This document shows positions 128-60,477 of a stretch of DNA of 60,477 nt, in pieces. The position numbers and the translations under genes are program-made. This DNA comes from a virus (Duplodnaviria; Caudoviricetes): positions 1-60,477 of the IMG/VR virus record IMGVR_UViG_3300043407_000092. The stretch is one strand, 5' to 3'. The notes beneath the pieces are model-generated. The model was not told the DNA's origin. It saw nothing but the letters and a program-made list of their open reading frames with translations, and searched no databases. Numbering within the stretch: the stretch's first letter is position 1; the number at the start of each line of letters is the position of its first letter.

Positions 128-1931
128 TAGCGGCATTAGCAACTTCCAATACGGTCATGGGTTTAGGAGCACGTCTAAATTTAGATGTAGACGCGGGAGG
201 AGCTGTCAGGTCGACAGATTGATCTGTAACCACGGGCGCAGCAGTTGTAACTACAGGAGCCGCAGTTGTAACTACAGGGGCAGCTGATTGACCGCTGGTA
301 TCTGGAAGAACACCAGCTTGTTGAACTGGGGCTCCAGTTCCGGGGGTAGTTCCACCAACTGTTCCTTGGACAGGAGTAGCTGATCCTGCAGCTCCCACAA
401 CTCCCGGAACGACAGCGCCCCCAGCTCCCACGCCTGCTGAAACTCCTGATCCAGTAGAAATTGGTGCGCTGACATTTGTAGCTCCTTGAGTAGCAGCACT
501 CATAGCGTTGATGATGTTCTGAACCGCAGCCTGTTTTATCAGTTTTTCCGCTTGTTTAAATTTATTTTGTGCAAGCGTTGTACGAACTGAATCTAGTTGT
601 TCTTGAGTTAGCTTAGCTTCCATCAACTTTGGTAGCAGCGTTAAGGTCTTGCCGGATGGGCTAATTCCCATCGAAAGCAGTTGTTCCTCATCTGCGCTAA
701 AAATTTTAGAAGCTGCGGGAGCAGTAGAACCAGCAGAAACAGGAGGCACAAGCGTAGCCCCCAGAGGAGCAGTTCCAGCAGGAGTAGTTCCAGCAGGAGT
801 AGTTAAATCAGTTTCCTGAGTTAGCAACGATGCCGTTGTTGGTTGAGCAGGATTACCAAACGCACTTAAACCAGCAGGATAAGTGCCGCCTAACAAATTA
901 GAATTAGCGTATGGGTTACCCATCAAAGCCGCAGGATCGGTTCCTGTAATGCTTTTGCCAAGAGGGGTTGGAGTATCCGGCTGAGTTAAATCAATAGCGC
1001 CTTCTTCTGGACGACTAGAGCGCAGGCCGCCTACACCACCAAAGACACCACCTAGGGCTGCACCACCAACGAACGAATCCAAGTAGCGCTTATTGGCAGC
1101 TTCATTAAACAGAGTTTCGTTGGGATCAACCGCCATACGACCGGCGTACTGGTTAATAATTTCTTGGCCAGTTTCGCTTAGACCTTCAGCCACAGCAGTA
1201 GTCGGTACAGCCACAGCGAGCCTACGAGCAAGACCGCCTTCACCTTGGATCAGAGGACGCATACCGCGGGCAAGCTGGCCCTCAATACCAAGGGCATTCA
1301 ACGCAGCGTACGGAACACCGCCAAGAGTAGCAGCACCTAGGTTTTCACCGCCGGCATCGCGTTGAGCAGACAAAATATCACCTACAGCACTTGGATAGCT
1401 AGCGCCTACAGCACCCGCAGTACTAGCGGCGGCACGAGTCAAACCCATACGGGCAGCAGTACCGCCAAGGGCTAAGCCACCTGTAAGACCGCCGACAACA
1501 GCTTCACCCAAGTATGGGAGGGACTGAGCAGCAAGACCGCCAATGTAATTTAAACCAGTGCCAATGCCGGTAACATCTCTAAAATCTTCAATACCGCCAA
1601 GGTCACGAGCGCGTTGGGCCGCGTAAGCAGCAGCACTTTCATTAGCCTCACGGCGAGCGTCAAACGCAGCAGCAGTATCAGTAGCACCGACTTTTCGAGC
1701 AACAGCACCGCCAAGGCCCAAAAGGTTTGCTTGATACTGGTCAATACCAGCAGAGACTCGACTACCGGCAAGGCCGCGCCCTGCACCGCTGTAACCTATT
1801 TCAGAAGCGTACGCATCAAGAGATGGGTAGTAACTTTTGTAATTTTGAAACGTACTCTGTAGAATGTCTTCATCAGTTAGATTTTCAAGACCACCGTTAG
1901 CTTTACGAATGTCTGCAATGGAACGTGGCAT
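1..1931 (-). CDS. N-terminal part of giant polyvalent internal virion/ejection protein (~2642 aa in total; continues at 60350-54353)
   Basis: Manual translation from ATG 1931 (MPRSIADIRKANGGLENLTDEDILQ...) is open to base 1 and ends ...KLSDDQLTAE, joining the track ORF MSDDQLTAE. It has Gly/Ala-rich hydrophobic segments and an AEGLSETGQE motif typical of large podophage internal proteins. Confidence 0.9.
   Translation of the reverse strand, partial: MPRSIADIRKANGGLENLTDEDILQSTFQNYKSYYPSLDAYASEIGYSGAGRGLAGSRVSAGIDQYQANLLGLGGAVARKVGATDTAAAFDARREANESAAAYAAQRARDLGGIEDFRDVTGIGTGLNYIGGLAAQSLPYLGEAVVGGLTGGLALGGTAARMGLTRAAASTAGAVGASYPSAVGDILSAQRDAGGENLGAATLGGVPYAALNALGIEGQLARGMRPLIQGEGGLARRLAVAVPTTAVAEGLSETGQEIINQYAGRMAVDPNETLFNEAANKRYLDSFVGGAALGGVFGGVGGLRSSRPEEGAIDLTQPDTPTPLGKSITGTDPAALMGNPYANSNLLGGTYPAGLSAFGNPAQPTTASLLTQETDLTTPAGTTPAGTAPLGATLVPPVSAGSTAPAASKIFSADEEQLLSMGISPSGKTLTLLPKLMEAKLTQEQLDSVRTTLAQNKFKQAEKLIKQAAVQNIINAMSAATQGATNVSAPISTGSGVSAGVGAGGAVVPGVVGAAGSATPVQGTVGGTTPGTGAPVQQAGVLPDTSGQSAAPVVTTAAPVVTTAAPVVTDQSVDLTAPPASTSKFRRAPKPMTVLEVANAAKAAQAQQTETQRPQTTRQPAVLARGEVTPDVVSKLSDDQLTA
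226..283 (-). repeat. 21-nt tandem repeat encoding APVVTTA (about 3 copies) in the giant protein linker
   Basis: gcagttgtaactacagg occurs at 241 and 262, with a degenerate third copy. Confidence 0.8.
272..475 (-). CDS. Nested +1-frame small protein A (67 aa, MSAHQFLLDQEFQQAWELGALSFRELWELQDQLLL...)
   Basis: AAGGAG (482-487) lies 6 nt before ATG 475. The product is helical and protein-like, while the host frame here is low-complexity G/A/V/P/T linker. Confidence 0.7.
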   Translation of the reverse strand: MSAHQFLLDQEFQQAWELGALSFRELWELQDQLLLSKEQLVELPPELEPQFNKLVFFQIPAVNQLPL

Positions 1932-1940
1932 AAAAGCACC

Positions 1941-3560
1941 TTACTGGTTCTGCAACTGGTTGTACTGTTCCGTTGTATAACGTTTTTTGGTCAGTGGATC
2001 AGTGTAGAAGTATTCTACGCCGCCAAACATTCCGCGTCGAGACTCTCGTAAAAAGTCTTCTAGAGGACCGCGAACAGCAGCTCCCGGAACTGTCATGCGA
2101 GATTCACCGGGTCGAACTTCAATTGGAGCAGTAGCTAGGCCAAGACCTTTTTTCTTATTGGCGGCTTGTAAGGCCGCGTCTTCGTTTCCTGCGGCAGGGC
2201 CGCGGCCATATAGTAAATCAGCTTCTATTTTAGCGGCTGGGTAAGACAAACCAGTATCAGTAAAACTTTTGATAGTGGCTGCGTAATCTTTAGGTGTGAA
2301 CTCAGGCTTTACTGCAGCGCCAAGAGACAACTGCCTACCGGGGCCAGCAGATGCCATGTTGTAGCTAGTTATCAGAGCTCGGCCTTTTGTGCCAATTTTT
2401 TCTTCGGGCGTAAGCGCGTCAAACTCTTCCTGAATTTTATCAAGCTTGGCTATCGTCGCAGAATCTCGTTTGAGTCCTCCAGCACGAACATTAGACAGAT
2501 TAGCCGCAGCGTTAGAAGCAACAATAGCCGCGCCCTGCGCATCAATAGCACTTTCTACTTTACGCAAGTTCATCATCCAAGAGCCTATGGTCTCAGGTTC
2601 AGTGGCTTGTTTATTTAAGTACTCAGTAGCTAGGGCTTCGTTTTTAAACGTCTGAGTGCCTGTAATGCGTTTACTTGCTTTGTCAATAAAGTTTAGAGTA
2701 ACTGCGCCGCCTTTACCGGGCACAATGGCTAAGTCAGTTTTGTCGTCAAAGTCTGGGTCAGAGTTGTAAAGCGAGCCAAGCTGAGTAAGGTTTTTGCCTT
2801 GTAGCTTCTTTTTAATATTGTTTTTAAAACTATCCATCTCAGCGTTTTCAATGCCCAAACGTGTAGTTACAGTCTCTTGCCACTGCTTTGGAGTAAATTT
2901 AAATTGTGTAAATGCAGCTTTTTTTAGTTCTTCTACTGTAGCGTCAGGACGTTCGGCAGCGAAGTTAGCAAAACCAGAAGCATTTTGCAATTCAGTTTCA
3001 GTACGATTAGCAGCTTTAATTTGAAGGCCGGTAAGGTCTCTCTGTTGAGCTTGGCCAGCAATTTGGCCTTTTACACTTTCTAATTGCAGAGGGCGATACT
3101 TAGCGTTGTAATCAATATCATCCGCTTGCTGCAAAAGCTGAGAAGCCCGAACAGGATCGCCGCTAGCACCAAGAACGCGGGCAGCTTCACGCATTTGTAA
3201 ACCGCGAATTTGGTCAGGCGAAAACTGGCCGGCTACTGTTTGACCGCCGTACCGCTGAACTTGTTGAGGGGCAAACTCTGTAGGAGGCGCAGGCATATCA
3301 CCCTGAAGGTCAAGCCCTTGTTTTGGGGTGTAACGAAGCGTAGGAGCTTGACCTGGGGCACCGGGCATAGCTTCAACGTCATAAGCTCCCGTTTCTTGCA
3401 ACCGTTGAATTTCTTTTGTTTGTTCTGGCGTGTAGTCAACATATGACTCAGGTTGAGCATAGGCTTTAGCCAAGCCACGTTTTAGCTCGTCTTCTTCGCG
3501 CATTTTAAGACCGCGCTCAACCGCTTGTGCGCCTACTTGGAATCCTGCTGCGAAACCCAT
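1941..3560 (-). CDS. Putative internal virion/DNA ejection protein
   Basis: Long helical Ala/Gln-rich ORF starting MGFAAGFQVG after GGAGG, located between the pilot-like protein and the giant protein. Confidence 0.7.
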   Translation of the reverse strand: MGFAAGFQVGAQAVERGLKMREEDELKRGLAKAYAQPESYVDYTPEQTKEIQRLQETGAYDVEAMPGAPGQAPTLRYTPKQGLDLQGDMPAPPTEFAPQQVQRYGGQTVAGQFSPDQIRGLQMREAARVLGASGDPVRASQLLQQADDIDYNAKYRPLQLESVKGQIAGQAQQRDLTGLQIKAANRTETELQNASGFANFAAERPDATVEELKKAAFTQFKFTPKQWQETVTTRLGIENAEMDSFKNNIKKKLQGKNLTQLGSLYNSDPDFDDKTDLAIVPGKGGAVTLNFIDKASKRITGTQTFKNEALATEYLNKQATEPETIGSWMMNLRKVESAIDAQGAAIVASNAAANLSNVRAGGLKRDSATIAKLDKIQEEFDALTPEEKIGTKGRALITSYNMASAGPGRQLSLGAAVKPEFTPKDYAATIKSFTDTGLSYPAAKIEADLLYGRGPAAGNEDAALQAANKKKGLGLATAPIEVRPGESRMTVPGAAVRGPLEDFLRESRRGMFGGVEYFYTDPLTKKRYTTEQYNQLQNQ

Positions 3561-3561
3561 A

Positions 3562-4512
3562 TTAAACCTCCAACATCTCAATGCCGAGACCGGCGTAATT
3601 CACTGCTTTGTAGCCGTCAGGCATTGTGTAGACCATGTCTGGGAAGCGTTTCTCAACATCATCCGCCATTACACCTAAGTAGCGCTGGCCTGATCCGCCG
3701 TTGTATTCAAACTCATAGAGCGGCAACATTGTGCGCTCATCGCGGCCAACTTCCTCAATATTGTTTTTGAGGCGACGATCGGAGAATTTAAATGCAGCAG
3801 TTGTAGCAGCTCCAGCCAATGCGCCGTAAACCTGACTTTCAGCATTAAGCCCTGTATTAAACTGGCTAGTCTGATTGTTAAGAACGTTGCCGTATGTTTG
3901 GCCTGATTGCTGCAGACCCTGTTGGTACTGTGAGCCGGGAGCCATAGATGTATTAATGCCAGCAGAGCCTGCGCCTGTCGCACCTTGGTACGCCGCAGTG
4001 GAAGCACCCGAAAGATTACGGCCAAGGCCGGTAACGTCAAGGCGGCGAGCAAATCCAATTTGTTCAGCTTGATTACGAGCGCCTGTCATAGCATTTGCAC
4101 GATTAGCAGCAAGACCTAGATTAGATTGATTAGCCATAGACATGGCTCGACCAGAGTTAGGGTTTACCCCCATAGACGCTTGAGCACGCTGAGAGGCTGC
4201 TTGAGTTATGCCAAAGGCCCGCCCGGCTGCAGCAGAAGCATCCCGAGCAAGATTTTCTCGATAGGCATCGGTATTAAATCGTTCAGCATCTCGAACAAGC
4301 CCCTGCTCTAGCGGTCGAAAGGTATTCTGCTGATAGCTAAAGTAATCCTGCGCTTGCTGCATTTGCTGATTTTGCGCAGCTATTTGCTGAGTAGCTACTT
4401 GTTGGGCAAGAGGAAGCAGGTCTTTGTATTGTTCTTTTGCAAAGGCCAACTGTTCAGCACCAAGCTCTTTCATTGGCCCATAGTCTGGTGCTGGTTGTGA
4501 TTTTCCGCCCAT
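3562..4512 (-). CDS. Putative DNA pilot/ejection protein with C-terminal intramolecular chaperone (peptidase S74/ICA) domain
   Basis: Starts MGGKSQPAPDY after AAGGAG. Gln/Ala/Gly-rich body; SDRRLKNNI...YEFEY...GVMADDVE...VNY is the S74 signature. Confidence 0.8.
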   Translation of the reverse strand: MGGKSQPAPDYGPMKELGAEQLAFAKEQYKDLLPLAQQVATQQIAAQNQQMQQAQDYFSYQQNTFRPLEQGLVRDAERFNTDAYRENLARDASAAAGRAFGITQAASQRAQASMGVNPNSGRAMSMANQSNLGLAANRANAMTGARNQAEQIGFARRLDVTGLGRNLSGASTAAYQGATGAGSAGINTSMAPGSQYQQGLQQSGQTYGNVLNNQTSQFNTGLNAESQVYGALAGAATTAAFKFSDRRLKNNIEEVGRDERTMLPLYEFEYNGGSGQRYLGVMADDVEKRFPDMVYTMPDGYKAVNYAGLGIEMLEV

Positions 4513-20635: not shown

Positions 20636-22942
20636 TCATGTAAAAATACGCTCTTGCCCAACATACGGCTGACTGAAATAGGAAATATCGCAGTAGTCCG
20701 TTAAAAACAGGTACCCCGTGTCGGTAGCACTCTGTGTTTCCGATAGTGTACGCTGTAAATCAAATTTTTGCACCTCTAAAAGATTAACAGATTCAGAGAA
20801 TCGTTTGCTAACACTGGCTGTTTGATTATCTTCCGTTGTGAGAGTGCCGTCAAAGTCATCAGTTACTGCAACTATATCGCTAAATCTCTTCTGTAGACCT
20901 AAAGCTGTTGTATCCGTAGCATACTGGTCTTCGTATTGTGGTGGCACGCCGTTGGCGGCAATTCGAATAACGTCTACAACTTCAGAAGTTGTCAAGTTAT
21001 CTACTGCGGAAACCACAAAATGAACAAAGGTCGTTGTCGAGGTTGTGACTGAATCAGATAGCGTTTTGTTAAAGGTGTGGGCAAAAGACTCAGCTACAGC
21101 AACAGAATCTGCAGACACGCGGCTCAAGTCAAAAAGCTTGAGGTCGGACAAAGTTGCCGTGTCTGTTAGGGTTTTCCCTGATTTAAAAATCAATTGAGTC
21201 TCAGTAACAGCAGCACTATCTGTGGCAGAAAGGCCAAAACCAATGGCTACGGTATCGCTGGGCGACGTGGTATCTGCCAAGCTGCGAGCGTAAGCTAACA
21301 CATACGCCAGTTGATCGGCGGTACTTGCTGTGTCAGAAAGACGCTTAGCAAATTGTGCCGTAGTAGAGTCAAAAGAACTAGCAAAGTCCTGCCGAGCTTT
21401 TCCGAATTCGACTGCTGTATCTGTATTTGAAGTCGCGCTATCAGTAAGAGATTTACCTACAGACAAAGCTGCTTGCTCGGTCATTACAGCAGTATCCGCT
21501 GATACACGAGAAATGTCGTAGGACAAAACTGTCGCGAGTGTGGCTACATCCAAAATCCTCTTGTTTAGGAAAAAAACCTCACCGTCGTCTGTTACGGTAG
21601 CGGTGTTAATTTCGTCAGTAGCGTCCGCAACATCTGCAAAATTACGGAAGTAATCAAAGACGTAAATTAAGTTATCCGCCGTAGTAGCCGCATCTGTTGA
21701 ATTTTTACCGTACGCCGTTGTGGTGTTATCAATTGTTACAGCATTGTCTTGGCGCAGCTTACTAAACGCAACCCGCGTTAGAGTACTTGAGGCCGCCGTA
21801 TCCGCAGCAGCAAGATTAAAGTCCACAAAAGCCGAATCGCCAAACGCCACTGCGTCTGAAAACGGTTTAAACGCAGTAATTGCTGTTTGCGTCGCAGATG
21901 CTACAGCGTCAGCAAGAGCTTTTTCAAAGTAGGCGCTGCTGTCATCAGTCGTTGTGGCGGAGTCGCTAAGTGCTTTGCCGGTGTTGCGGACTTGGGTGTC
22001 CGACGAAGTCGTCGCATCAGAAGCAGCTTTTGAGGCTAGTAAAACTGTGTTGTCCGCAAAACTCGTCAGATCAGATAACGGTTTGTTGCTTGCCAGTGCG
22101 GTAGTCGTAGCGGTTGTAAACGCGTCCGCTCTTGCTTTTTGTGTAAATAAATCCGGCTGATCCAGCAACTGCGCAATATCCGCTGACACTCGGGCAATAT
22201 CGTAAGAAAGGGTGGTGTTAGTCGTAGCCGAGTCTAGGACTCGTTTATCTAGGAAAAACACCTCTCCATCATCCGTCAGAAATGCGGTATTGATCTCATC
22301 CGTACCATCAACAACATCGTCAAAGAACCTGACAAAAGACACAACACGAGAGAAGGTATCAACCGTAATAGCTGGGTCGTTTACCGCTTTACCGAATGTA
22401 GTAATGTTTGTCGTAGCCGTCCCAACCGGATCGCTTTTTGTAGTGTTAAAACCTTTGTCAGTAGCGGTAGAAGTAGTAGCAGCATCAACTAACGGCTTCC
22501 CAAAAACTTGAGTCAATTGGGTGGTTGTCGCGGCTGCGTCCGCTAAAACTCTGCCAGTGAAGAATGTTACTAGATCAGTTGTATCTGCTTTGTCTTGCAG
22601 GGCTTTAGACAAGCTAACCAATGCGGCGTCAACAGCGCGAATTTCATCTTCACGTAATTTAGAAAAGCTAAATGTAGCAAGCTCAGAAGTGGCAAAAGAA
22701 TCTGCCAACTCATACAACGTAAAGAAATACCCTGTAGCCGCGTCTGCTTTGAGTAATGAGGCTTTTACGGCAACAGATAGATTTTCTGTATTAGATAAAA
22801 CACTAAACACGGCTGCTCTTGCAAGCACCGTCATTACTTCTTCGGAAAGAGTCGCAGTCCCAACAACCGCCCGCGCTTTCGCAGCTAGCTTCGCGTACGT
22901 CGCTAGTGCCTTTATGCGGTGTCCGGAGACCTTAATAGGCAT
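20636..22942 (-). CDS. Repetitive Thr/Asp/Ala-rich structural (fibre/decoration) protein
   Basis: About 17-aa periodic K.L.D.A...D pattern and an internal ~50-aa duplication. Confidence 0.7.
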   Translation of the reverse strand: MPIKVSGHRIKALATYAKLAAKARAVVGTATLSEEVMTVLARAAVFSVLSNTENLSVAVKASLLKADAATGYFFTLYELADSFATSELATFSFSKLREDEIRAVDAALVSLSKALQDKADTTDLVTFFTGRVLADAAATTTQLTQVFGKPLVDAATTSTATDKGFNTTKSDPVGTATTNITTFGKAVNDPAITVDTFSRVVSFVRFFDDVVDGTDEINTAFLTDDGEVFFLDKRVLDSATTNTTLSYDIARVSADIAQLLDQPDLFTQKARADAFTTATTTALASNKPLSDLTSFADNTVLLASKAASDATTSSDTQVRNTGKALSDSATTTDDSSAYFEKALADAVASATQTAITAFKPFSDAVAFGDSAFVDFNLAAADTAASSTLTRVAFSKLRQDNAVTIDNTTTAYGKNSTDAATTADNLIYVFDYFRNFADVADATDEINTATVTDDGEVFFLNKRILDVATLATVLSYDISRVSADTAVMTEQAALSVGKSLTDSATSNTDTAVEFGKARQDFASSFDSTTAQFAKRLSDTASTADQLAYVLAYARSLADTTSPSDTVAIGFGLSATDSAAVTETQLIFKSGKTLTDTATLSDLKLFDLSRVSADSVAVAESFAHTFNKTLSDSVTTSTTTFVHFVVSAVDNLTTSEVVDVIRIAANGVPPQYEDQYATDTTALGLQKRFSDIVAVTDDFDGTLTTEDNQTASVSKRFSESVNLLEVQKFDLQRTLSETQSATDTGYLFLTDYCDISYFSQPYVGQERIFT

Positions 22943-39123: not shown

Positions 39124-40230
39124 ATGAAAGTAACTACCCTAGACAAGGCAAAGGTATCGCTAGTAACACAGCATCCTTTCTTTGCCTCTATCCTTATGAA
39201 GCGACAGCTTATCGAGGATGAAACTATTCCAACAGCAGCAGTAGATCAGCGCAATCAAATCTACATCAACCCTACATGGTTCAACACACTATCGGTTGAC
39301 GAAGTTGTGTTCGTACTAGCACACGAGATCGGCCATGTGATCGGTCAGCATGCGACTCGTCGAGGTGCGCGTCAGCCTAAAAAGTGGAACATTGCAGGCG
39401 ATGCTTGGATTAACGACATGCTCAAGGCAGCAAACATTGGCACGCCCATCAAGGGATGCGTACAGATGGATGGCTCTAAGGATGAGACAGTTGATGAGAT
39501 TTACAACAAGCTCCCCGATAATCCTACAGGTGATGGGCCCGGAGGTACAGGCGACGACATCATCGAGCGTGGCTCACCACTGACCCCAGAAGAAGCTACG
39601 CGCATCGATGCTGAGACTCGTGTCGAGATTGCACAAGCAGCGCAAGCAGCTAAGGCTCAAGGCAAGATGCCCCCTGCATTGGCTAAGATCATTGCTGACT
39701 TGATCGATCCTGGAACACCATGGCACGAGATTCTCGAGCGTTACATGACAAGCTATGTACGTGGAGACTATTCATGGTCACGCCCTAACCGCAGATTCGC
39801 TGACATTGCGTACCTCCCAAGCACAGGCAAGGTAGCTGAAATGGGCGAGGTTGTTATCCAAGTCGACGTATCAGGCTCTATCAGCAAGACAGAGTTGGCT
39901 TATTACAACGGTCACATGGCTCGTATCATTGAGCAGTGCAACCCCGAGCGAGTACACGTCTTGTATGTTGACACTGGTGTATGCAAGCATGAGGTATTCG
40001 AGCAAGGCGAAGAAGTAGCACTAGAGTTTTACTCAGGCGGAGGCACTGACATGGAAGCAGGCTTTGAGTTCCTTGCCAAGGAGGGCATTGAGCCCGAGGT
40101 ATTCGTCTGTCTGACAGATGGTTACACAGACTTTAATGTGGATAAAGCACCTAACTACCCTGTTTTGTGGTGTATTTCTAGTGACATTAACGCTCCTTAC
40201 GGTGAAAATATCCATTTTTCACTGGAGTAA
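39124..40230 (+). CDS. DUF2201-type metallopeptidase + vWA domain protein
   Basis: HEIGH zincin motif, WNIAGD, WSRPNRR, MIDAS DVSGS, GGGTD, LTDGY. Confidence 0.88.
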   Translation: MKVTTLDKAKVSLVTQHPFFASILMKRQLIEDETIPTAAVDQRNQIYINPTWFNTLSVDEVVFVLAHEIGHVIGQHATRRGARQPKKWNIAGDAWINDMLKAANIGTPIKGCVQMDGSKDETVDEIYNKLPDNPTGDGPGGTGDDIIERGSPLTPEEATRIDAETRVEIAQAAQAAKAQGKMPPALAKIIADLIDPGTPWHEILERYMTSYVRGDYSWSRPNRRFADIAYLPSTGKVAEMGEVVIQVDVSGSISKTELAYYNGHMARIIEQCNPERVHVLYVDTGVCKHEVFEQGEEVALEFYSGGGTDMEAGFEFLAKEGIEPEVFVCLTDGYTDFNVDKAPNYPVLWCISSDINAPYGENIHFSLE

Positions 40231-54352: not shown

Positions 54353-57300
54353 TTAATCTCCTGCGATTTCTTCAGCTAGTTTACGGGTTCCTTTGGTGTA
54401 CTGCACACCGCCAACCGTCATACGCTCGCGTTTAGCTTGCTCTTGCGGTGCTTTTAGTAAGTCAGAAAACGGCTGCAACTTAAGACCATTTTCTTGTCGA
54501 GCTTTTTGAAGTTTCGTCCACGCCTCACGAGCTGACTGTTTAGCAGCAGCATCGTTGTTCTTAACAGCCTTAACATAGTCGTTTTTAACACGAGTCGTGC
54601 GCTCTTGGAAGTTTTCAGTAACATCACGCATGCGATTTTGTCGCTCATAAGTTACAGTTTCTTTAACAGACGGAACACCAAGACCGGTCAAAATGGCAGA
54701 AATTGCACTAATCTCTTCTGCGGGTAACACTACATCACCGTTACGGCGAGTCATACCTTCAGCAGCTTGGCGTCCAGCTTTGAGCGCGTCGGATACACCC
54801 TTGGGCATAGTGCGCTCAATACCTTTGTAGTAATCGCCACTGAGAATCAACCCCATGCCATCGGCTACACGAGATACCATACCTAACGATGCGCCCCCTA
54901 CTAGAGTGCCAAATGCTTCTGCACGGCCAGCCGTTGTGCTGAGATCGGCGTCACTAAATGGCATGATAGAAAGCATATTGCCGGAGCCAATCTTACCTGA
55001 CAGATCAACGCCTACTAATGTAGGAGCGCCGCGCATAATAAGATCAGACCACTCAGGACCAAGAGCCTTCCGCATATCTGCTGTCAAATCATAAGGGTCG
55101 TCTTCGTCACTGAACGCTTTAAGTAGAAAAGCAACAGCCGCATAACCAGGCAATCCCATCATGCCAGCAAAAACTGCGGAATGACCTAATGAAAAAGCCA
55201 GTGTGCGCATGGCAGCAGCCCGCTCGGCGGGATTTGTAAACGCATCGCGCAACAGTTTGGCGTAGAACGCAATCTGAATTAATTGGAACTTGCGGAACTG
55301 CAGTGCAACCTTACCCCACTGGCTGTTAAAAACGCGAGGTGCATTCATAGCAGTGTAGTCACCATGGGTATCAGTCAGGATATCAGCAGCGTACTGCGTA
55401 GCCTTTTCAGCATCCTTAGTTCGTGCAAACTCCAAACGGTATGCAGCAATGGCCGTAGACAGACGATTGGTAGCTTCCACTTTCTGGACAGCCAGTCGCA
55501 TGCTCTTGTTTAAACGTTGTGCAAACTTACCTAGCTTGCTATCAGCATCAACCTTGTACTCGTTAATTTCAGTGGCTAAGCCAATGTCAATCTGCCCTTG
55601 GTTAACGAGTTTGGTAATTGCTGCGCGTACATCAGCAGGAACTTTTGAAAAGTCAAACTGTTGGTCAAACAACTTAATGTCTTTAAACAGTGGGCCAAGT
55701 TCAGCGTACGCATCAAACAAAGCTTTGCCTGCCTTAGTGTAGTCATGGCGGCCAGCCAGTGCAGGCAGAGACATCATGAATGGCTGTGTCAAATTCTGCA
55801 TGTAATACGCAGGACTAGAAGCCAAGAAGTACTTAGAAGCCGTGTTAGTCAGGCCAGTAATAAAACCATTGCCCTTGGTTTCTAAAGACTCCACATAACG
55901 CTTGGTTAGTTCGTCAAAGATTTCTGATTTGCGTTCGCGGTTTCCGCCTCGGCGATCATTACGCATTTGCTGCAATGCATCTTGGATCAACGGCTCAAAC
56001 TCTACGTTAGCAAGGAAGTTGGCATCAGCGCGACCCTGACGAGTAAACGACTGCAGCATATCCACTTCACCAGCTACCCCACGACGACGCATCTCAGACT
56101 TGCGAGCACTACCCTCTGCCAACGCCTCCAAGTACAACTGGTTAACGATGTTTAACAGCTTGCTGCGACTAGAATCATCGCGTTTGTCAACCGCAGCACG
56201 AATTTTGGTCAACGCTGGCAAAAGCGCCTCACCGCTAAAGGCTTCTTCAAATGCCGTAGCTCGCTTAACAATATCTGGCTTGGTAAATACACCTTGGTCA
56301 GTTAGGTTGTCGCTAAGGGTACGTGCCGCCCACTTGGTATCAACAAAGCTAACATGGTAGTGGTCTGGGTCGGACTCAAGTTGTTTGATACGTTTTGTAT
56401 CTTTAGCAATTTCGGCAGCTTTGTACTCTGCAGATTTACCAATGACAACGTACGCACCGTCACGCTTAATAGGTGCATAGGGTTTACCCTCACGAATAGC
56501 AAACAATGTTTGGAATCGTTTAAGCGTGGCAACTTTTTCAGCTTTAAGCGCTGCTAGTTCCCCTTCAGCTTTTTGTTTTTCCTTGGCATCTGTTGCCGTG
56601 TTAACCATGTTCTGAGCTGCCTGAATCATGGCATCGTACTCAGAGTTTGCAGACTTCAAGACACTTTGTTTCTTTTGAGACAAAATCTTGTCACCATGAG
56701 CAAACACGTTCTTAACAAACTTTTGAGCTTTGGGGCCTAGCTTGTCAAATGCATCACCCATTTTGTCATCGCGGTACTTGCCGTAACCCCACTTCAGAGT
56801 ACGAGTAGACTCAAACAAGAAGTCGTTAACACTACCGCGGCCAGCACCCTTGAACTCTGGTTCAATATCAGCGTAGCCATCTGCAATGCTTTCAATTTCA
56901 CGTTCAAACTCACTGACACGCGCTCTGCGTTGCGACAAAGCATCGGCAAAACTTTGAGCAGAAGTTAGCCCAGCGTCTACGGCACGTTTAATTAAGTCGC
57001 TTGTAAATACAACGTAGTCTAGGCCAGCGCCTGTTACGTCACCTAAAGCAAGAACAATATTGCGTACAGGAGACCGAGAAGCTTTAGGCAGCTTGGCAAT
57101 GTTGTTTTGGATTACCCCTTGGCTCGGCCTTGCCATTCTTAAAATTGCTGGCTGAAACGCCGTCGCCGACACTAAATCAATCTTTGCGCCGTCCCAATTG
57201 CGCCGTGCACGCTCCAAAGCGTGGCTGACATTTAAACCGCGCATACCATCTGTAAAAGGCGCATCGCCCGGGAATGTTACCTTGACGGTAATTTCTTTTT

Positions 57301-60300
57301 TGTACTTTGATTCTTCGTAGGATTTGGGGGCTTTCCCCATGCCCATTAACGAGTCTGGGGCGTTTCCATACGGAACGGCTGAAGTGATCCTTTGGGTTCC
57401 ACGATAGGCTTGAACTTGCGAGGATTCTGCTGTAGTTGCTGCGCCCGTTTGAGCATCTGCGCCACCTTTGTTTTGTTTTGCGGTTTCATCACTAGCCTCC
57501 ATAAAATCATAAGTAGCCGGTAGGTTATCTGCCAAATAGGCATTGCCTTCACGGGTGTTGTAAAAAGCCCAAAGCTGCGCAAAGACTTCCATGCGAGTCT
57601 CGTCAGCACTCATATTCTTAGTGTCGTTTCGGCTGTGGTCGAGAGGGTAGCCCATAGACCTTGTAAAGTCTGAATCTGGATTTTCAGCCATGTGAGTCAT
57701 AATTTCAGACACCACAGAACCCATAGGTTTAACAACACCTTTTTGAATAGTCAGATTAAACTCAGGCAGGCCAGAAAAAATACCACCTGTTGTAAACGCA
57801 GCATCTGCAATGTGGCCCAGCTCGTGATGAATAGCCCAGTTAGCTGCATCAGAATTAACCAGCATGCCAGAACGTACTGCCAAAGTCTGTTTACCGTCCA
57901 CCATCATAATGGCAGCGTCAAAGTCAACAGTGTCTGGGGCAACCATCCACAACTCAACGTCATCAATTACTTGACGAAGATCGTTATTTTCATAATGACT
58001 TAGCGCACTTTCAACGCCGGGAAATCTGCGCAGGCTAGCCTCGTCAGTAATTTGGCCATCAAACTTTAATGTTCCGGCAGTAACTTCAACCGTGTCGCCT
58101 TTAGTAAGACGTAAAACGCGGTTAACCGCTACATCAATAGTTTCTTCTTTACCCACTACATCAGCAGCTGCAACGCCTTTAGCGCCTTGGCCATCTTCAG
58201 TACGGGTCTCTGTGCGGGTCTCGGCAGCAAACATCTGAGCTGCTTGTTCTTGTGCATCAGGCACGACAAAAACCATACCGCCATCAAGATTGGCAATGTT
58301 GGGAGCAATCTCGTTAATAAAGGTGTCATGCTTGGTATTGATACAGCCATAGCTAACACGGTTGTCTGCTGCTGTAGGAGTATCTAATCGACCTAAACGA
58401 TTCTCAGACGGTGTGCTAGTGTCTGCAGCGTGGATGGCAATGTAGCCCGTGTAGTCTTTAGACTCAACCAAGATTAACTCTTGGCCACCAGCGTACGTAG
58501 ATGGTCTAGCTTTAAGAGTAAATTTACCAGCAGGGGTAACTTTTGCGCCGCCTTCCAAAGAAGACACAGCTTCCATCACGTCACCAGTATCTTTGCCGTA
58601 CAGCGTAGGGTCAGACAAAGCGTGTGAGCCATCTTCTTTAAAGATATGCAGCATGCCGTTTGGCTTGTCGGCAACCATAAACCATTTACCAGACTTCATT
58701 GCCACAGGAGCCATGGCTTCATACACGCTTTGAGCAGTCGGTGACATTTGAGCTTTAGCTACAGCAGGTACGGCTTGCGTTACTTCAATGGTCTGTTCAA
58801 ATGTTTTAGCAACGTTAAGAGCAAACGCATCTTTGGTAATGTTCGGGTTGAACACAATACCCATGGCAAGTACGCCTTCGGCCATTGATTTGATGATGCT
58901 ACGAATAGCACCTGCAACAGCTTCTGCACCTTGAGTAACATACTTGGTAATGTCCTCTTGTACTTTGCGTAAGAACTCAGCGCTGTCACGCTTCTCACCA
59001 TAGTGCTTTTCAAGACGATCAATCTGAGGCGCTGGTAGCGCGGCAACCTGTTGGGTAACCTGCTCATCAATGATGCGAGTTTCACCTTCAATGGTGACTG
59101 GCTCTTTAGTCAGCAACTGCTGCAAGCCCATCTCTTTGGCAACTGAGGGTTTACCATTAGTACGGACAGCTAAGTCAGTCAGGTAACCTTGCTCAAGCTT
59201 GTTTAACTGCTCGTACGGAACTAAGCCGGGTGTCTTAGCAGAAAGGTTTTCCCACAGGGCTTTGCCTCTATCTATTTGCTCTTCGGCTTGGCCTTGGGTT
59301 TGACCTTTGCTGGCAGGTTTTTCGGCACGCCGTACTTGGCCGCCCACTCTTTTGCCACCTTTGGTTTCTGACTGAACAGGTACGAGCGCTGTGCTTGTGA
59401 CTTGAACGGCATTTGTTTTCTCCAGTTTAGCCATCTGGACAGACAGCTCTTTTGTTTGACCGCTTTGAAAATCTACGGTTACGGTAGTTGCATCTCCGTC
59501 GCCAGAAAAACTTCTAACAATCCCAGTACCCAACTTGGGGTTTACTACAGTGTCGCCAACTTCAAAACCTTTGCGGTCAGCAGCGCGTTTAGCAGCGGCC
59601 TTAGCACGAAGTTTTTCAGCTTCAGCTTTTTTGGCGTCATCAGCATTGTTAACAGAAATTGATTCTGGCTCGGCCTCTTTAGCTGCTGCAACTAAATCAA
59701 CTTCACCATCCGTGTCTCCCAAACCAGCAGTTTCTTTAACTGCTGCTTGAGCGCGTTTTTCAACGGCGCGAACTTTGACAAGTTGTTCTGCCAATTTAGC
59801 ATTGAGCTCTTTTAGTTTGGCTTCATCAGTCTCAGCAGCCAAGGCTTCTAGTGTGGCATCAATTTCTTTTTGGAGCTTAGTAAAGCCTTCAACTTCAGAA
59901 GTACCAGCACCAGCAGTGTTTACAATATTTTCTAAGCCGCCCTCAATAGCTTCACTTTCACTAATTGCTGACGGTTGATTTTGCCCAAAAATCTCACGCT
60001 CAACGGCTGAACCTGTTACATCTTGTTCAAGTGGCGTAAATGCGTTTTTAATCTGCTCATCTGTTAGACCCAATTCGGTTCTGGCTTGCGCAACGCGAGC
60101 GGCACGAGCTTCAGCACCTGTAGCCCCTGCAATCTTCTGTATGGAAGAGCGAGTCAAACCATACTTGGCAGCAGCATTAGGCTCAGACATACCCATGCCA
60201 ATAACATCAAAGATAATATCGCCGTTGCGCTCACCAAAAATACGTTGTAACAAAACTTGACGTTCGTCCACAACAGGTGGATTACTGCGTTTAGTCTGTT

Positions 60301-60477
60301 CATCCTGCAACAACTTATATTCAGCGTCGCTAATGTTGATGTTTGTTAATTCGGCAGTTAGTTGGTCGTCAGACAATTTACTGACAACATCAGGCGTAAC
60401 TTCTCCGCGAGCTAAAACGGCTGGTTGTCGCGTTGTTTGCGGTCTTTGCGTTTCTGTTTGCTGGGCTTGAGCGGCTT
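54353..60477 (-). CDS. C-terminal part of giant polyvalent protein (HTH-like, Tudor, L,D-transpeptidase-like, zincin and PLxRFG domains)
   Basis: 2007-aa track ORF whose frame stays open through the junction to ATG 1931. Motifs: GDTVVNPKLGTG, IAIH...SYGCIN, HELGH, PYAPIKRDG. Confidence 0.9.
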   Translation of the reverse strand, partial: AAQAQQTETQRPQTTRQPAVLARGEVTPDVVSKLSDDQLTAELTNINISDAEYKLLQDEQTKRSNPPVVDERQVLLQRIFGERNGDIIFDVIGMGMSEPNAAAKYGLTRSSIQKIAGATGAEARAARVAQARTELGLTDEQIKNAFTPLEQDVTGSAVEREIFGQNQPSAISESEAIEGGLENIVNTAGAGTSEVEGFTKLQKEIDATLEALAAETDEAKLKELNAKLAEQLVKVRAVEKRAQAAVKETAGLGDTDGEVDLVAAAKEAEPESISVNNADDAKKAEAEKLRAKAAAKRAADRKGFEVGDTVVNPKLGTGIVRSFSGDGDATTVTVDFQSGQTKELSVQMAKLEKTNAVQVTSTALVPVQSETKGGKRVGGQVRRAEKPASKGQTQGQAEEQIDRGKALWENLSAKTPGLVPYEQLNKLEQGYLTDLAVRTNGKPSVAKEMGLQQLLTKEPVTIEGETRIIDEQVTQQVAALPAPQIDRLEKHYGEKRDSAEFLRKVQEDITKYVTQGAEAVAGAIRSIIKSMAEGVLAMGIVFNPNITKDAFALNVAKTFEQTIEVTQAVPAVAKAQMSPTAQSVYEAMAPVAMKSGKWFMVADKPNGMLHIFKEDGSHALSDPTLYGKDTGDVMEAVSSLEGGAKVTPAGKFTLKARPSTYAGGQELILVESKDYTGYIAIHAADTSTPSENRLGRLDTPTAADNRVSYGCINTKHDTFINEIAPNIANLDGGMVFVVPDAQEQAAQMFAAETRTETRTEDGQGAKGVAAADVVGKEETIDVAVNRVLRLTKGDTVEVTAGTLKFDGQITDEASLRRFPGVESALSHYENNDLRQVIDDVELWMVAPDTVDFDAAIMMVDGKQTLAVRSGMLVNSDAANWAIHHELGHIADAAFTTGGIFSGLPEFNLTIQKGVVKPMGSVVSEIMTHMAENPDSDFTRSMGYPLDHSRNDTKNMSADETRMEVFAQLWAFYNTREGNAYLADNLPATYDFMEASDETAKQNKGGADAQTGAATTAESSQVQAYRGTQRITSAVPYGNAPDSLMGMGKAPKSYEESKYKKEITVKVTFPGDAPFTDGMRGLNVSHALERARRNWDGAKIDLVSATAFQPAILRMARPSQGVIQNNIAKLPKASRSPVRNIVLALGDVTGAGLDYVVFTSDLIKRAVDAGLTSAQSFADALSQRRARVSEFEREIESIADGYADIEPEFKGAGRGSVNDFLFESTRTLKWGYGKYRDDKMGDAFDKLGPKAQKFVKNVFAHGDKILSQKKQSVLKSANSEYDAMIQAAQNMVNTATDAKEKQKAEGELAALKAEKVATLKRFQTLFAIREGKPYAPIKRDGAYVVIGKSAEYKAAEIAKDTKRIKQLESDPDHYHVSFVDTKWAARTLSDNLTDQGVFTKPDIVKRATAFEEAFSGEALLPALTKIRAAVDKRDDSSRSKLLNIVNQLYLEALAEGSARKSEMRRRGVAGEVDMLQSFTRQGRADANFLANVEFEPLIQDALQQMRNDRRGGNRERKSEIFDELTKRYVESLETKGNGFITGLTNTASKYFLASSPAYYMQNLTQPFMMSLPALAGRHDYTKAGKALFDAYAELGPLFKDIKLFDQQFDFSKVPADVRAAITKLVNQGQIDIGLATEINEYKVDADSKLGKFAQRLNKSMRLAVQKVEATNRLSTAIAAYRLEFARTKDAEKATQYAADILTDTHGDYTAMNAPRVFNSQWGKVALQFRKFQLIQIAFYAKLLRDAFTNPAERAAAMRTLAFSLGHSAVFAGMMGLPGYAAVAFLLKAFSDEDDPYDLTADMRKALGPEWSDLIMRGAPTLVGVDLSGKIGSGNMLSIMPFSDADLSTTAGRAEAFGTLVGGASLGMVSRVADGMGLILSGDYYKGIERTMPKGVSDALKAGRQAAEGMTRRNGDVVLPAEEISAISAILTGLGVPSVKETVTYERQNRMRDVTENFQERTTRVKNDYVKAVKNNDAAAKQSAREAWTKLQKARQENGLKLQPFSDLLKAPQEQAKRERMTVGGVQYTKGTRKLAEEIAGD
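57346..57489 (-). CDS. Nested +1-frame small protein C (47 aa, MKPQNKTKVAQMLKRAQQLQQNPRKFKP...)
   Basis: GGAGG (57496-57500) lies 6 nt before ATG 57489, right after the zincin domain. Confidence 0.55.
   Translation of the reverse strand: MKPQNKTKVAQMLKRAQQLQQNPRKFKPIVEPKGSLQPFRMETPQTR
59272..59412 (-). CDS. Nested +1-frame small basic protein B (46 aa, MPFKSQAQRSYLFSQKPKVAKEWAAKYG...)
   Basis: GGAG (59420-59423) lies 7 nt before ATG 59412. The sequence resembles free-standing small phage proteins beginning MPFKS.AQR..L...P.VAK.W. Confidence 0.75.
   Translation of the reverse strand: MPFKSQAQRSYLFSQKPKVAKEWAAKYGVPKNLPAKVKPKAKPKSK
60351..60477. repeat. 127-bp terminal overlap (copy of 1-127)
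   Basis: Exact identity with the window start. Confidence 0.95.

Follow-up and report, generated by a model that had tools for sequence, protein, structure and literature searches.

The C-terminal domain (CTD) of the helicases PcrA and UvrD is a Tudor domain for which several partners have been described. On the RNA polymerase (RNAP) of Bacillus subtilis, the PcrA domain docks on a beta-hairpin that belongs to SI1, an insertion of the beta subunit, and the helicase interaction motif reads [VIL]-D-x-x-T-G-E-[VIL]-[VILT], with IDESTGELI in Escherichia coli (Urrutia-Irazabal et al., PMC8318588). The motif recurs in domain 2 of UvrB, which competes with RNAP for a single face of the PcrA/UvrD Tudor domain; the free CTD of PcrA can displace full-length PcrA from RNAP, and an isolated Tudor domain is thus enough for docking (PMC8318588). 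Structures of the UvrD CTD are available with the lobe of E. coli RNAP (7EGS) and with Thermus UvrB (7EGT). In addition, the Tudor domain of mycobacterial UvrD1 is implicated in Ku binding (PMC11975281), and the CTD of E. coli UvrD binds DNA weakly, with aromatic residues implicated in DNA stacking (bioRxiv 10.1101/2020.07.06.189035). Here we describe a divergent domain of this type, encoded on the minus strand at 59417-59566 of a 60,477-nucleotide stretch (hereafter the window) that represents the whole of IMG/VR virus record IMGVR_UViG_3300043407_000092 (Duplodnaviria; Caudoviricetes). The domain is part of a giant phage protein, in which it forms an optional cassette together with a basic helix. 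A first reading of the sequence (hereafter the original prediction) had noted that such domains bind RNAP, which is established, yet incomplete, since UvrB, possibly Ku and, weakly, DNA have also been reported as ligands. Profile comparisons and structure models lead us to propose, with a probability of roughly 0.45, that the cassette serves as an adaptor docking the ejected giant protein on the hairpin with the Thr-Gly-Glu (TGE) motif of RNAP beta and/or UvrB.

The record is complete, with a direct terminal repeat of 127 bp (positions 1-127 are identical to 60351-60477). The Tudor stretch lies in an open frame, 54353-60475 on the minus strand, that runs off the end of the record into this repeat. 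When the record is read as a circle, the frame passes through the repeat into 1931-128 of the same strand, with an ATG at 1931, to yield a single product of 2642 residues. The domain corresponds to residues 906-955 of this product, and to residues 304-353 of its 2040-residue part translated from the long frame (P0003). The peptide quoted in the original prediction, FEVGDTVVNPKLGTGIVRSFSGDGDATTVTVDFQSGQTKELSVQMAKLEK, is the 50-residue minus-strand translation of the stretch; a plus-strand reading was rejected, as it gives an unrelated peptide. Of note for annotation, the record boundary splits the giant gene, and linear gene calling yields fragments of 643 and 2040 residues instead of the 2642-residue protein.

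Profile searches and fold comparisons confirmed the assignment of the predicted peptide as a true but divergent PcrA/UvrD C-terminal Tudor domain. The Pfam profile PcrA_UvrD_tudor (PF21196) matched the 50 residues alone over profile positions 1-48 of 48, with a score of 24.4 bits (E 2.5e-5) above the cut-off of 23.9. A phmmer search of the PDB sequences with a 100-residue piece returned 10 distinct sequences at E<=10, the top seven of which are all UvrD, PcrA or UvrD1 (best 4c2t_A, E 0.0013). We then used a family profile built on an alignment of 20 phage copies over 66 columns (A1). It retrieved 13 PDB sequences at E<=10, with UvrD/PcrA C-terminal domains in all of the top nine places (best 4c2t_A, E 2.7e-8), the remaining four matches (E 0.69-1.7), to antibody light chains and PspA, being noise. 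In these profile alignments Asn and Leu occupy the His and Phe positions of the cellular pattern, as had been read from the sequence.

The fold points in the same direction as the profiles. An AlphaFold model of a 66-residue piece (mean predicted local distance difference test score, pLDDT, 79.5; predicted template modelling score, pTM, 0.65) contains, according to DSSP, four strands of at least three residues and a short fifth one. Foldseek ranks 1-8 are all Tudor domains of UvrD, PcrA or UvrD1, with root-mean-square deviations (rmsd) of 1.0-2.1 Å and identities of 29-37%. The best match, 7egs_B, is the CTD of E. coli UvrD crystallised with the E. coli RNAP lobe (template modelling score, TM, 0.89 on the target; rmsd 1.0 Å over 52 columns; 31% identity), and the Thermus UvrD CTD-UvrB complex (7egt_B) is found at rank 8. 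CarD/CdnL proteins occupy ranks 9-12 (E ~1.4e-2 to 1.8e-2), followed by Mfd, with rmsd values of 2.8-4.5 Å. An assignment to the CarD/TRCF family (PF02559) was rejected on these worse fold matches and on a score of 14.1 bits against a cut-off of 23. Neither part of the giant protein matches the UvrD-helicase or UvrD_C families, and the domain is internal in the protein rather than at the extreme C-terminus of a superfamily 1 UvrD-like helicase. The viral structure library BFVD gave no match at E<=0.001. At E ~1e-2 it contains proteins of 52-60 residues from actinophages (of Streptomyces and others, including SparkleGoddess, Belfort and Circinus) whose folds are Tudor-like and equal in size to that of the phage domain (21-31% identity; TM 0.74-0.79 on the target); these might be free-standing phage Tudor proteins.

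We collected homologues in two ways. A word-indexed search scored on residues 295-365 gave 217 candidates; the 87 with E<=0.01 are all proteins of 1456-3094 residues that harbour the domain at 70-100% identity. With the A1 profile, an exhaustive HMMER search covered 1.84 billion representatives and yielded 639 proteins at E<=0.001, of which 15 have E<=1e-10 and seven E<=1e-30. Ranks 1-14, at 97-130 bits, belong to giant proteins or fragments thereof (530-3130 residues). The other matches follow after a score gap, at 78 bits or less, and comprise cellular UvrD C-termini and small fragments; UvrD_C was found in P0111, P0112, P0121, P0129 and P0142, and PF21196 in eight of ten hits checked. Matches of this search near E 1e-5 are not all homologues, since one of them, P0192 (1714 residues, E 7.7e-6), is a BRCA2 repeat protein with seven weak repeat matches and was rejected. 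From the top 150, 143 proteins were aligned to the profile; seven giants were omitted, and the 136 non-giant rows represent the cellular copies in the comparisons below. Among the metagenomic matches, three proteins, P0099 (387 residues), P0100 (180 residues) and P0107 (221 residues), are tandem arrays of two or three PcrA/UvrD-type Tudor repeats that keep the canonical His and Phe (PF21196 at E 4.6e-26 in P0099 and 2.2e-23 in P0100); P0099 is devoid of a helicase domain. Proteins of this kind would be free-standing multivalent hairpin binders.

A megablast search of the giant gene against GenBank phages gave no match, and tblastn with the 100-residue Tudor piece found none at E<=0.01 in 50,697 GenBank phage records. 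The domain profile identified one locus only in 185,579 species genomes, on a phage-sized contig of 60,447 bp (L027) binned in a metagenome-assembled genome (MAG) of Phycisphaerales. It carries the same giant gene with its cassette, at 86% identity, and is probably a phage contig, not a prophage. That MAG has a canonical UvrD Tudor domain of its own, to which the phage profile assigns only 14 bits; thus, there is no sign of a recent capture from this MAG and no safe call of a host.

The cassette is under strong purifying selection. Among seven DNA copies, the ratio of nonsynonymous to synonymous substitution rates (dN/dS) of the 50-codon core is 0.008-0.107 in the 19 of 21 pairs with a computable dS, the other two being saturated, and synonymous sites are near saturation. 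In A1, 20 of the 66 columns are invariant across the 20 diverse copies. Within the same proteins, amino-acid identity reaches 0.76-0.82 in the domain, which equals or exceeds the value for most of the C-terminal module (0.46-0.85); the 83 homologues in this profile were chosen for having the Tudor domain, which biases coverage and does not force identity.

In order to see how the cassette is distributed, we chose relatives by their C-terminal module only. This gave 24 IMG/VR loci at 52-96% identity, two of which have too little upstream sequence. A scan with hidden Markov models (HMMs) of the long frame and of all six frames found the cassette in five of the 22 evaluable loci (L003, L006, L007, L010 and L018). 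An alignment of four proteins with the cassette and nine without it showed that a segment of ~75 residues, comprising the Lys/Ala-rich helix and the Tudor domain, is cleanly present or absent, between flanks conserved in both kinds (...VEKQAQAEVR..AG before and DAVQVESP.GVSVQP... after). A maximum-likelihood tree built from the last 900 residues implies five changes of cassette presence for the six bearers (the five loci and the window), for a mean of 5.5 in shuffled data and with 226 of 500 shuffles as low, and three bearers have a non-bearer as starred sister. Such scattering shows that the cassette is often reshuffled or lost, as expected of cargo in a mosaic protein. In one pair of bearers, L006 and L018, the Tudor cores have a proportion of nonsynonymous differences (pN) of 0.009, and the C-terminal modules are on opposite sides of the deepest well-supported split. 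This pattern suggests either an exchange of the cassette between distant giant genes or a far stronger constraint on the cassette.

These data bear on the possibility that the similarity has no functional meaning and that the segment is a structural spacer or the decaying remnant of a captured helicase tail. The cassette is dispensable, being absent from 17 of the 22 relatives in which the remainder of the protein is intact, and PF21196 falls below its cut-off in a longer context, with 21.8 bits for the 100-residue piece and 16.3 bits for the 2040-residue translation. Both observations also count against a docking function. Nevertheless, a spacer or a remnant is at odds with the low dN/dS at nearly saturated synonymous change, the invariant columns, the identity relative to the C-terminal module and the confidently folded model. 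We consider this explanation already disfavoured, and very improbable.

Next, we compared the binding face with that of the cellular domains. In PcrA, the substitutions H681A, W684A, K712A and L714A each severely reduce the pull-down of RNAP by the domain (Sanders et al., PMC5397179); H678, F681 and K708 are the UvrD counterparts of the first three residues. After mapping of the PcrA residues through the 5dma alignment, two of these four RNAP-binding residues are kept in the phage copies and two are invariantly changed. The K712 equivalent is Lys in 84 and Arg in three of the 87 phage copies (Lys in 128 of the 136 cellular ones), and that of L714 is Leu in 87/87 (126/136). The core Phe, F705 in PcrA, is also kept (Phe in 135/136 cellular copies). 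The H681 equivalent is Asn in all 87 phage copies and His in 131 cellular ones. Similarly, the W684 equivalent is invariably Leu in the phage copies and Phe, Trp or Tyr in 131/136 cellular proteins, and the position of E. coli UvrD Y714, aromatic in 105/136, is Leu, Met, Ser, Ala, Val or Thr. With these three positions changed, the aromatic cage is lost and the specificity may have changed.

We predicted the structure of a complex between the domain, with the A1 alignment, and residues 140-460 of E. coli RpoB, with E. coli as a stand-in for the host. Three runs gave values of 0.69, 0.70 and 0.69 for the interface score ipSAE (interaction prediction score from aligned errors), and the best of three controls reached 0.01. 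A value of 0.69 is reached by 58 of 80 solved complexes and by two of 110 mismatched pairs, counts that apply only roughly here, the alignment being our own. At least 97% of contacts are common to the runs, and the partner pLDDT is at least 85. In the model, the domain contacts RpoB residues 214, 216-218, 300, 302, 304-309, 312-313 and 357-360, of which 302 and 304-309 fall in the helicase interaction motif IDESTGELI (302-310). On the side of the phage protein, A1 positions 2, 17, 19-20, 28-32, 34, 36, 47-50 and 53-55 are involved; this predicted face includes the Asn, Lys-Leu and Lys-Glu-Leu-Ser and matches the mutated face of PcrA. RpoB E308 touches the conserved Lys of the domain, similar to the published docking that pairs UvrB E233 with PcrA K727 (PMC8318588). 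The complex model thus places the domain on this hairpin, but it may reflect memory of the solved similar complex 7EGS. The model supports binding of the hairpin by the phage domain and does not establish it.

Another explanation of the changed face is that the Tudor fold was kept but retargeted, to another host protein, to a phage or virion protein, or, jointly with the basic helix, to nucleic acid. The invariant Asn and Leu, the loss of the third aromatic residue, the cassette's own Lys/Arg-rich helix and the large score gap between the phage clade and the remaining matches are consistent with this possibility. Conversely, Asn and Leu could still provide the hydrogen bond and the hydrophobic contact of His and Phe, the Lys, the Leu and the core are kept, and the modelled complex uses A1 positions 17, 19-20 and 47-50 against the hairpin. 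Binding of DNA in the manner of the E. coli UvrD CTD is disfavoured, as the phage copies lack the aromatic residues that are implicated there in stacking on DNA. No [VIL]DxxTGE[VIL][VILT] motif or half-motif was found in the phage frames of at least 80 residues, making a self-target recognized via that motif unlikely. On balance, retargeting appears to be an unlikely explanation, although the changed face leaves genuine scope for it.

The domain is carried by a polyvalent protein of the PLxRFG/DarB-like type, whose gene comes last in the virion operon of a podovirus of ~60 kb. The C-terminal ~750 residues of the protein (1275-2022 of P0003) match phrog_10089, 'DarB-like antirestriction', at E 1.4e-57. 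In tblastn searches this module matched 35 phage records and is 24-28% identical to giant PLxRFG/DarB-like proteins of ~60 kb podoviruses, the named phages being Serratia Parlo, Erwinia PEp14, Klebsiella LASTA and SopranoGao, Ochrobactrum POI1126, Sinorhizobium PBC5 and Rhizobium RHph_TM. According to precomputed Pfam assignments, homologues carry the LPD23, ART-PolyVal or ParB families, typical of the polyvalent proteins described by Iyer et al. 2017 (PMC5512222). The giant gene is the last of the minus-strand operon, after genes for terminase, portal, major head, fibre, internal virion and ejection-like proteins. The internal virion protein belongs to phrog_511 (E 3.9e-145) and matches 373 phage records, with 32-37% identity to proteins of Stx-converting phages, Bcep22, Vibrio phage douglas 12A4 and Aeromonas phage phiARM81mr. 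Among relatives of the giant protein, gp47 of phi24B was detected in purified virions by mass spectrometry and has been put forward as an ejection protein packaged in the capsid (bioRxiv 10.64898/2026.04.10.717836), and gp69 of JC1 was found in virions by the same method (PMC9144972). By analogy, and given the position of its gene, the protein is probably carried in the virion and ejected with the DNA, in agreement with the idea of an ejected giant protein that accompanied the identification of the domain.

The plus strand encodes a DNA polymerase A, a PD-(D/E)XK nuclease, an SNF2 helicase and a DUF927 primase-helicase. The original prediction had found no phage RNA polymerase, and in our search at E<=1 the record gave no match to PF00940, the family of single-subunit RNA polymerases, a weak negative since control genomes gave no match either. 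From this absence, the phage probably relies on host RNAP. The record has no tRNA genes, and its G+C content is 0.46-0.52.

How might the adaptor operate? The basic helix and the Tudor domain would be strung between flexible linkers inside the giant protein, which would be packaged in the capsid and ejected into the cell with the DNA. There, the face made of Asn, Lys-Leu and Lys-Glu-Leu-Ser would clamp an exposed TGE beta-hairpin, as in the cellular homologues, a hairpin displayed by both bacterial RNAP beta (in SI1/the lobe) and UvrB. The domain could then tether the giant protein, its enzymatic cargo and probably the accompanying DNA end to host RNAP, or it could fill the docking site of UvrD. 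Tethering fits the likely stoichiometry better than bulk competition with UvrD, as few copies would be ejected per virion into a cell with thousands of polymerases, and this argues against part of the scheme. Phage T7 uses the host RNAP to pull most of its genome into the cell, and in light of this precedent the role in pulling DNA envisaged in the original prediction is conceivable. The two other consequences suggested there, an activation of early transcription and a block of transcription-coupled repair, are likewise hypothetical. In its most specific form, our proposal is that on entry a captured, re-tuned and virion-delivered UvrD/PcrA docking domain clamps the SI1/lobe hairpin of host RNAP, and possibly UvrB, so as to couple the genome end and the enzymatic cargo to transcription or to shield them from UvrD, with Asn and Leu tuning affinity or specificity. 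We regard this detailed scheme as tentative.

The hairpin of UvrB raises the question of whether RNAP is the target. The cassette might instead target UvrB, another host protein with a TGE hairpin, or Ku, and thereby disturb nucleotide excision repair or the recruitment of UvrD on incoming DNA. The use of the same motif by UvrB domain 2 and its competition with RNAP (PMC8318588), the UvrD CTD-UvrB complex among the fold matches, the retention of the conserved Lys that pairs with the hairpin glutamate and, for Ku, the UvrD1 data (PMC11975281) are all in line with such a target. However, the Tudor domain is dispensable for excision repair in Mycobacterium smegmatis and E. coli (PMC11975281), so that blocking it would gain the phage little, and the argument from copy number holds for UvrB as well. 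A target of this kind in place of RNAP is therefore rather improbable. Docking on the hairpin of RNAP beta and/or UvrB thus remains our preferred reading, with the substituted face, the dispensability of the cassette and the possible template memory of the complex model as the points to set against it.

The features of the giant gene are collected in Table 1. The YkuD-like region and the HHELGH motif, which form a middle module found in about 58-60% of the 83 Tudor-selected homologues, probably represent, from their sequences, cell-wall- or protein-cleaving cargo.

Table 1. Features of the giant polyvalent-protein gene in the window.
Feature	Coordinates	Strand	Basis
PcrA/UvrD-type Tudor core	59417..59566	-	translation, PF21196, PDB profile search, fold match 7egs_B
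Optional cassette: Lys/Ala-rich basic helix and Tudor (P0003 ~278-353)	59417..59644	-	alignment, BLAST segment maps, HMM scan
Giant polyvalent-protein gene, C-terminal 2040 codons and stop	54353..60477	-	frame, repeat identity
Giant gene, N-terminal ~600 codons, Gly/Ala-rich, no Pfam family	128..1931	-	circular frame
YkuD-like (L,D-transpeptidase-like) region, SYGC motif, weak	58292..58678	-	PF03734 E 0.0011, 20 bits, cut-off 23.4
HHELGH (HExxH) zincin-type metal-binding motif	57812..57829	-	sequence; no significant Pfam family
Conserved C-terminal PLxRFG/'DarB-like' module	54410..56653	-	phrog_10089 E 1.4e-57; tblastn to named phages

Three other genes of the window deserve mention. Two genes of the virion operon have no PHROG family at E<=1e-5, namely 20636-22942 (minus strand, 768 residues) and 1941-3581 (minus strand, 546 residues), the latter directly upstream of the giant gene. 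On the early/replication strand, 39124-40230 (plus) encodes a fusion of a DUF2201 putative metallopeptidase and a VWA-like domain (E 9.2e-52 and 2.5e-21, respectively).

What a phage requires within the first seconds of an infection can be read from the cargo domains of polyvalent virion proteins, and so far these domains are known mostly as enzymes and anti-restriction modules. If our proposal is correct, the cargo described here would be of a new type: not an enzyme, but a host-derived docking domain that acts as an adaptor to the hairpin of RNAP beta and UvrB. As a mimic of the polymerase-docking module of a host helicase, it would be the first to be carried in a virion, and it would provide a second kind of ligand for the poorly understood SI1 insertion of beta. 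The idea is directly testable with a peptide of 70-80 residues and the known point mutants, and natural phage variants with and without the cassette, the relatives being known here from metagenomes only, could serve for comparison. Should the domain bind neither RNAP nor UvrB, it would still be a clean example of an interaction face re-tuned after viral capture. Our literature search found no paper on PF21196-type Tudor domains in polyvalent proteins of phage virions.

Three groups of described proteins are closest to the cassette or its carrier. CarD/CdnL and Mfd (TRCF; PF02559) share with it a Tudor-like barrel that docks on RNAP beta, and are its next-best fold matches, but they bind the beta1 lobe by beta-sheet extension and not the SI1 hairpin (PMC5397179, PMC8318588). 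With the polyvalent proteins of phages and conjugative elements (Iyer et al. 2017, PMC5512222) and the PLxRFG/DarB-like giant virion proteins of Bcep22, JC1, phi24B, PEp14 and Parlo-type podoviruses, the carrier has in common the C-terminal module, a mosaic middle of exchangeable cargo domains and the position of its gene at the end of the virion operon. It differs in the nature of the cargo, a UvrD-type Tudor domain; the words 'Tudor' and 'PcrA' have 0 occurrences in the main text of PMC5512222. With the CTD Tudor domains of UvrD, PcrA and UvrD1 (PF21196; 5DMA, 6YI2, 7EGS, 7EGT and 9DQS), the phage domain shares the five-strand barrel, the flexible linkers, the GD.V...K.G.G / F...G.K.L...A.L pattern, the Lys and Leu of the face and the core Phe, and it is placed by the model on the same RpoB hairpin. 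In contrast to them, it is internal in a polyvalent protein without a helicase domain, it has Asn for His and Leu for Phe/Trp in 87/87 copies and has lost the third aromatic residue, and its homologues form a separate, high-scoring clade confined to giant proteins. The cassette is thus a known domain family in a new architectural context.

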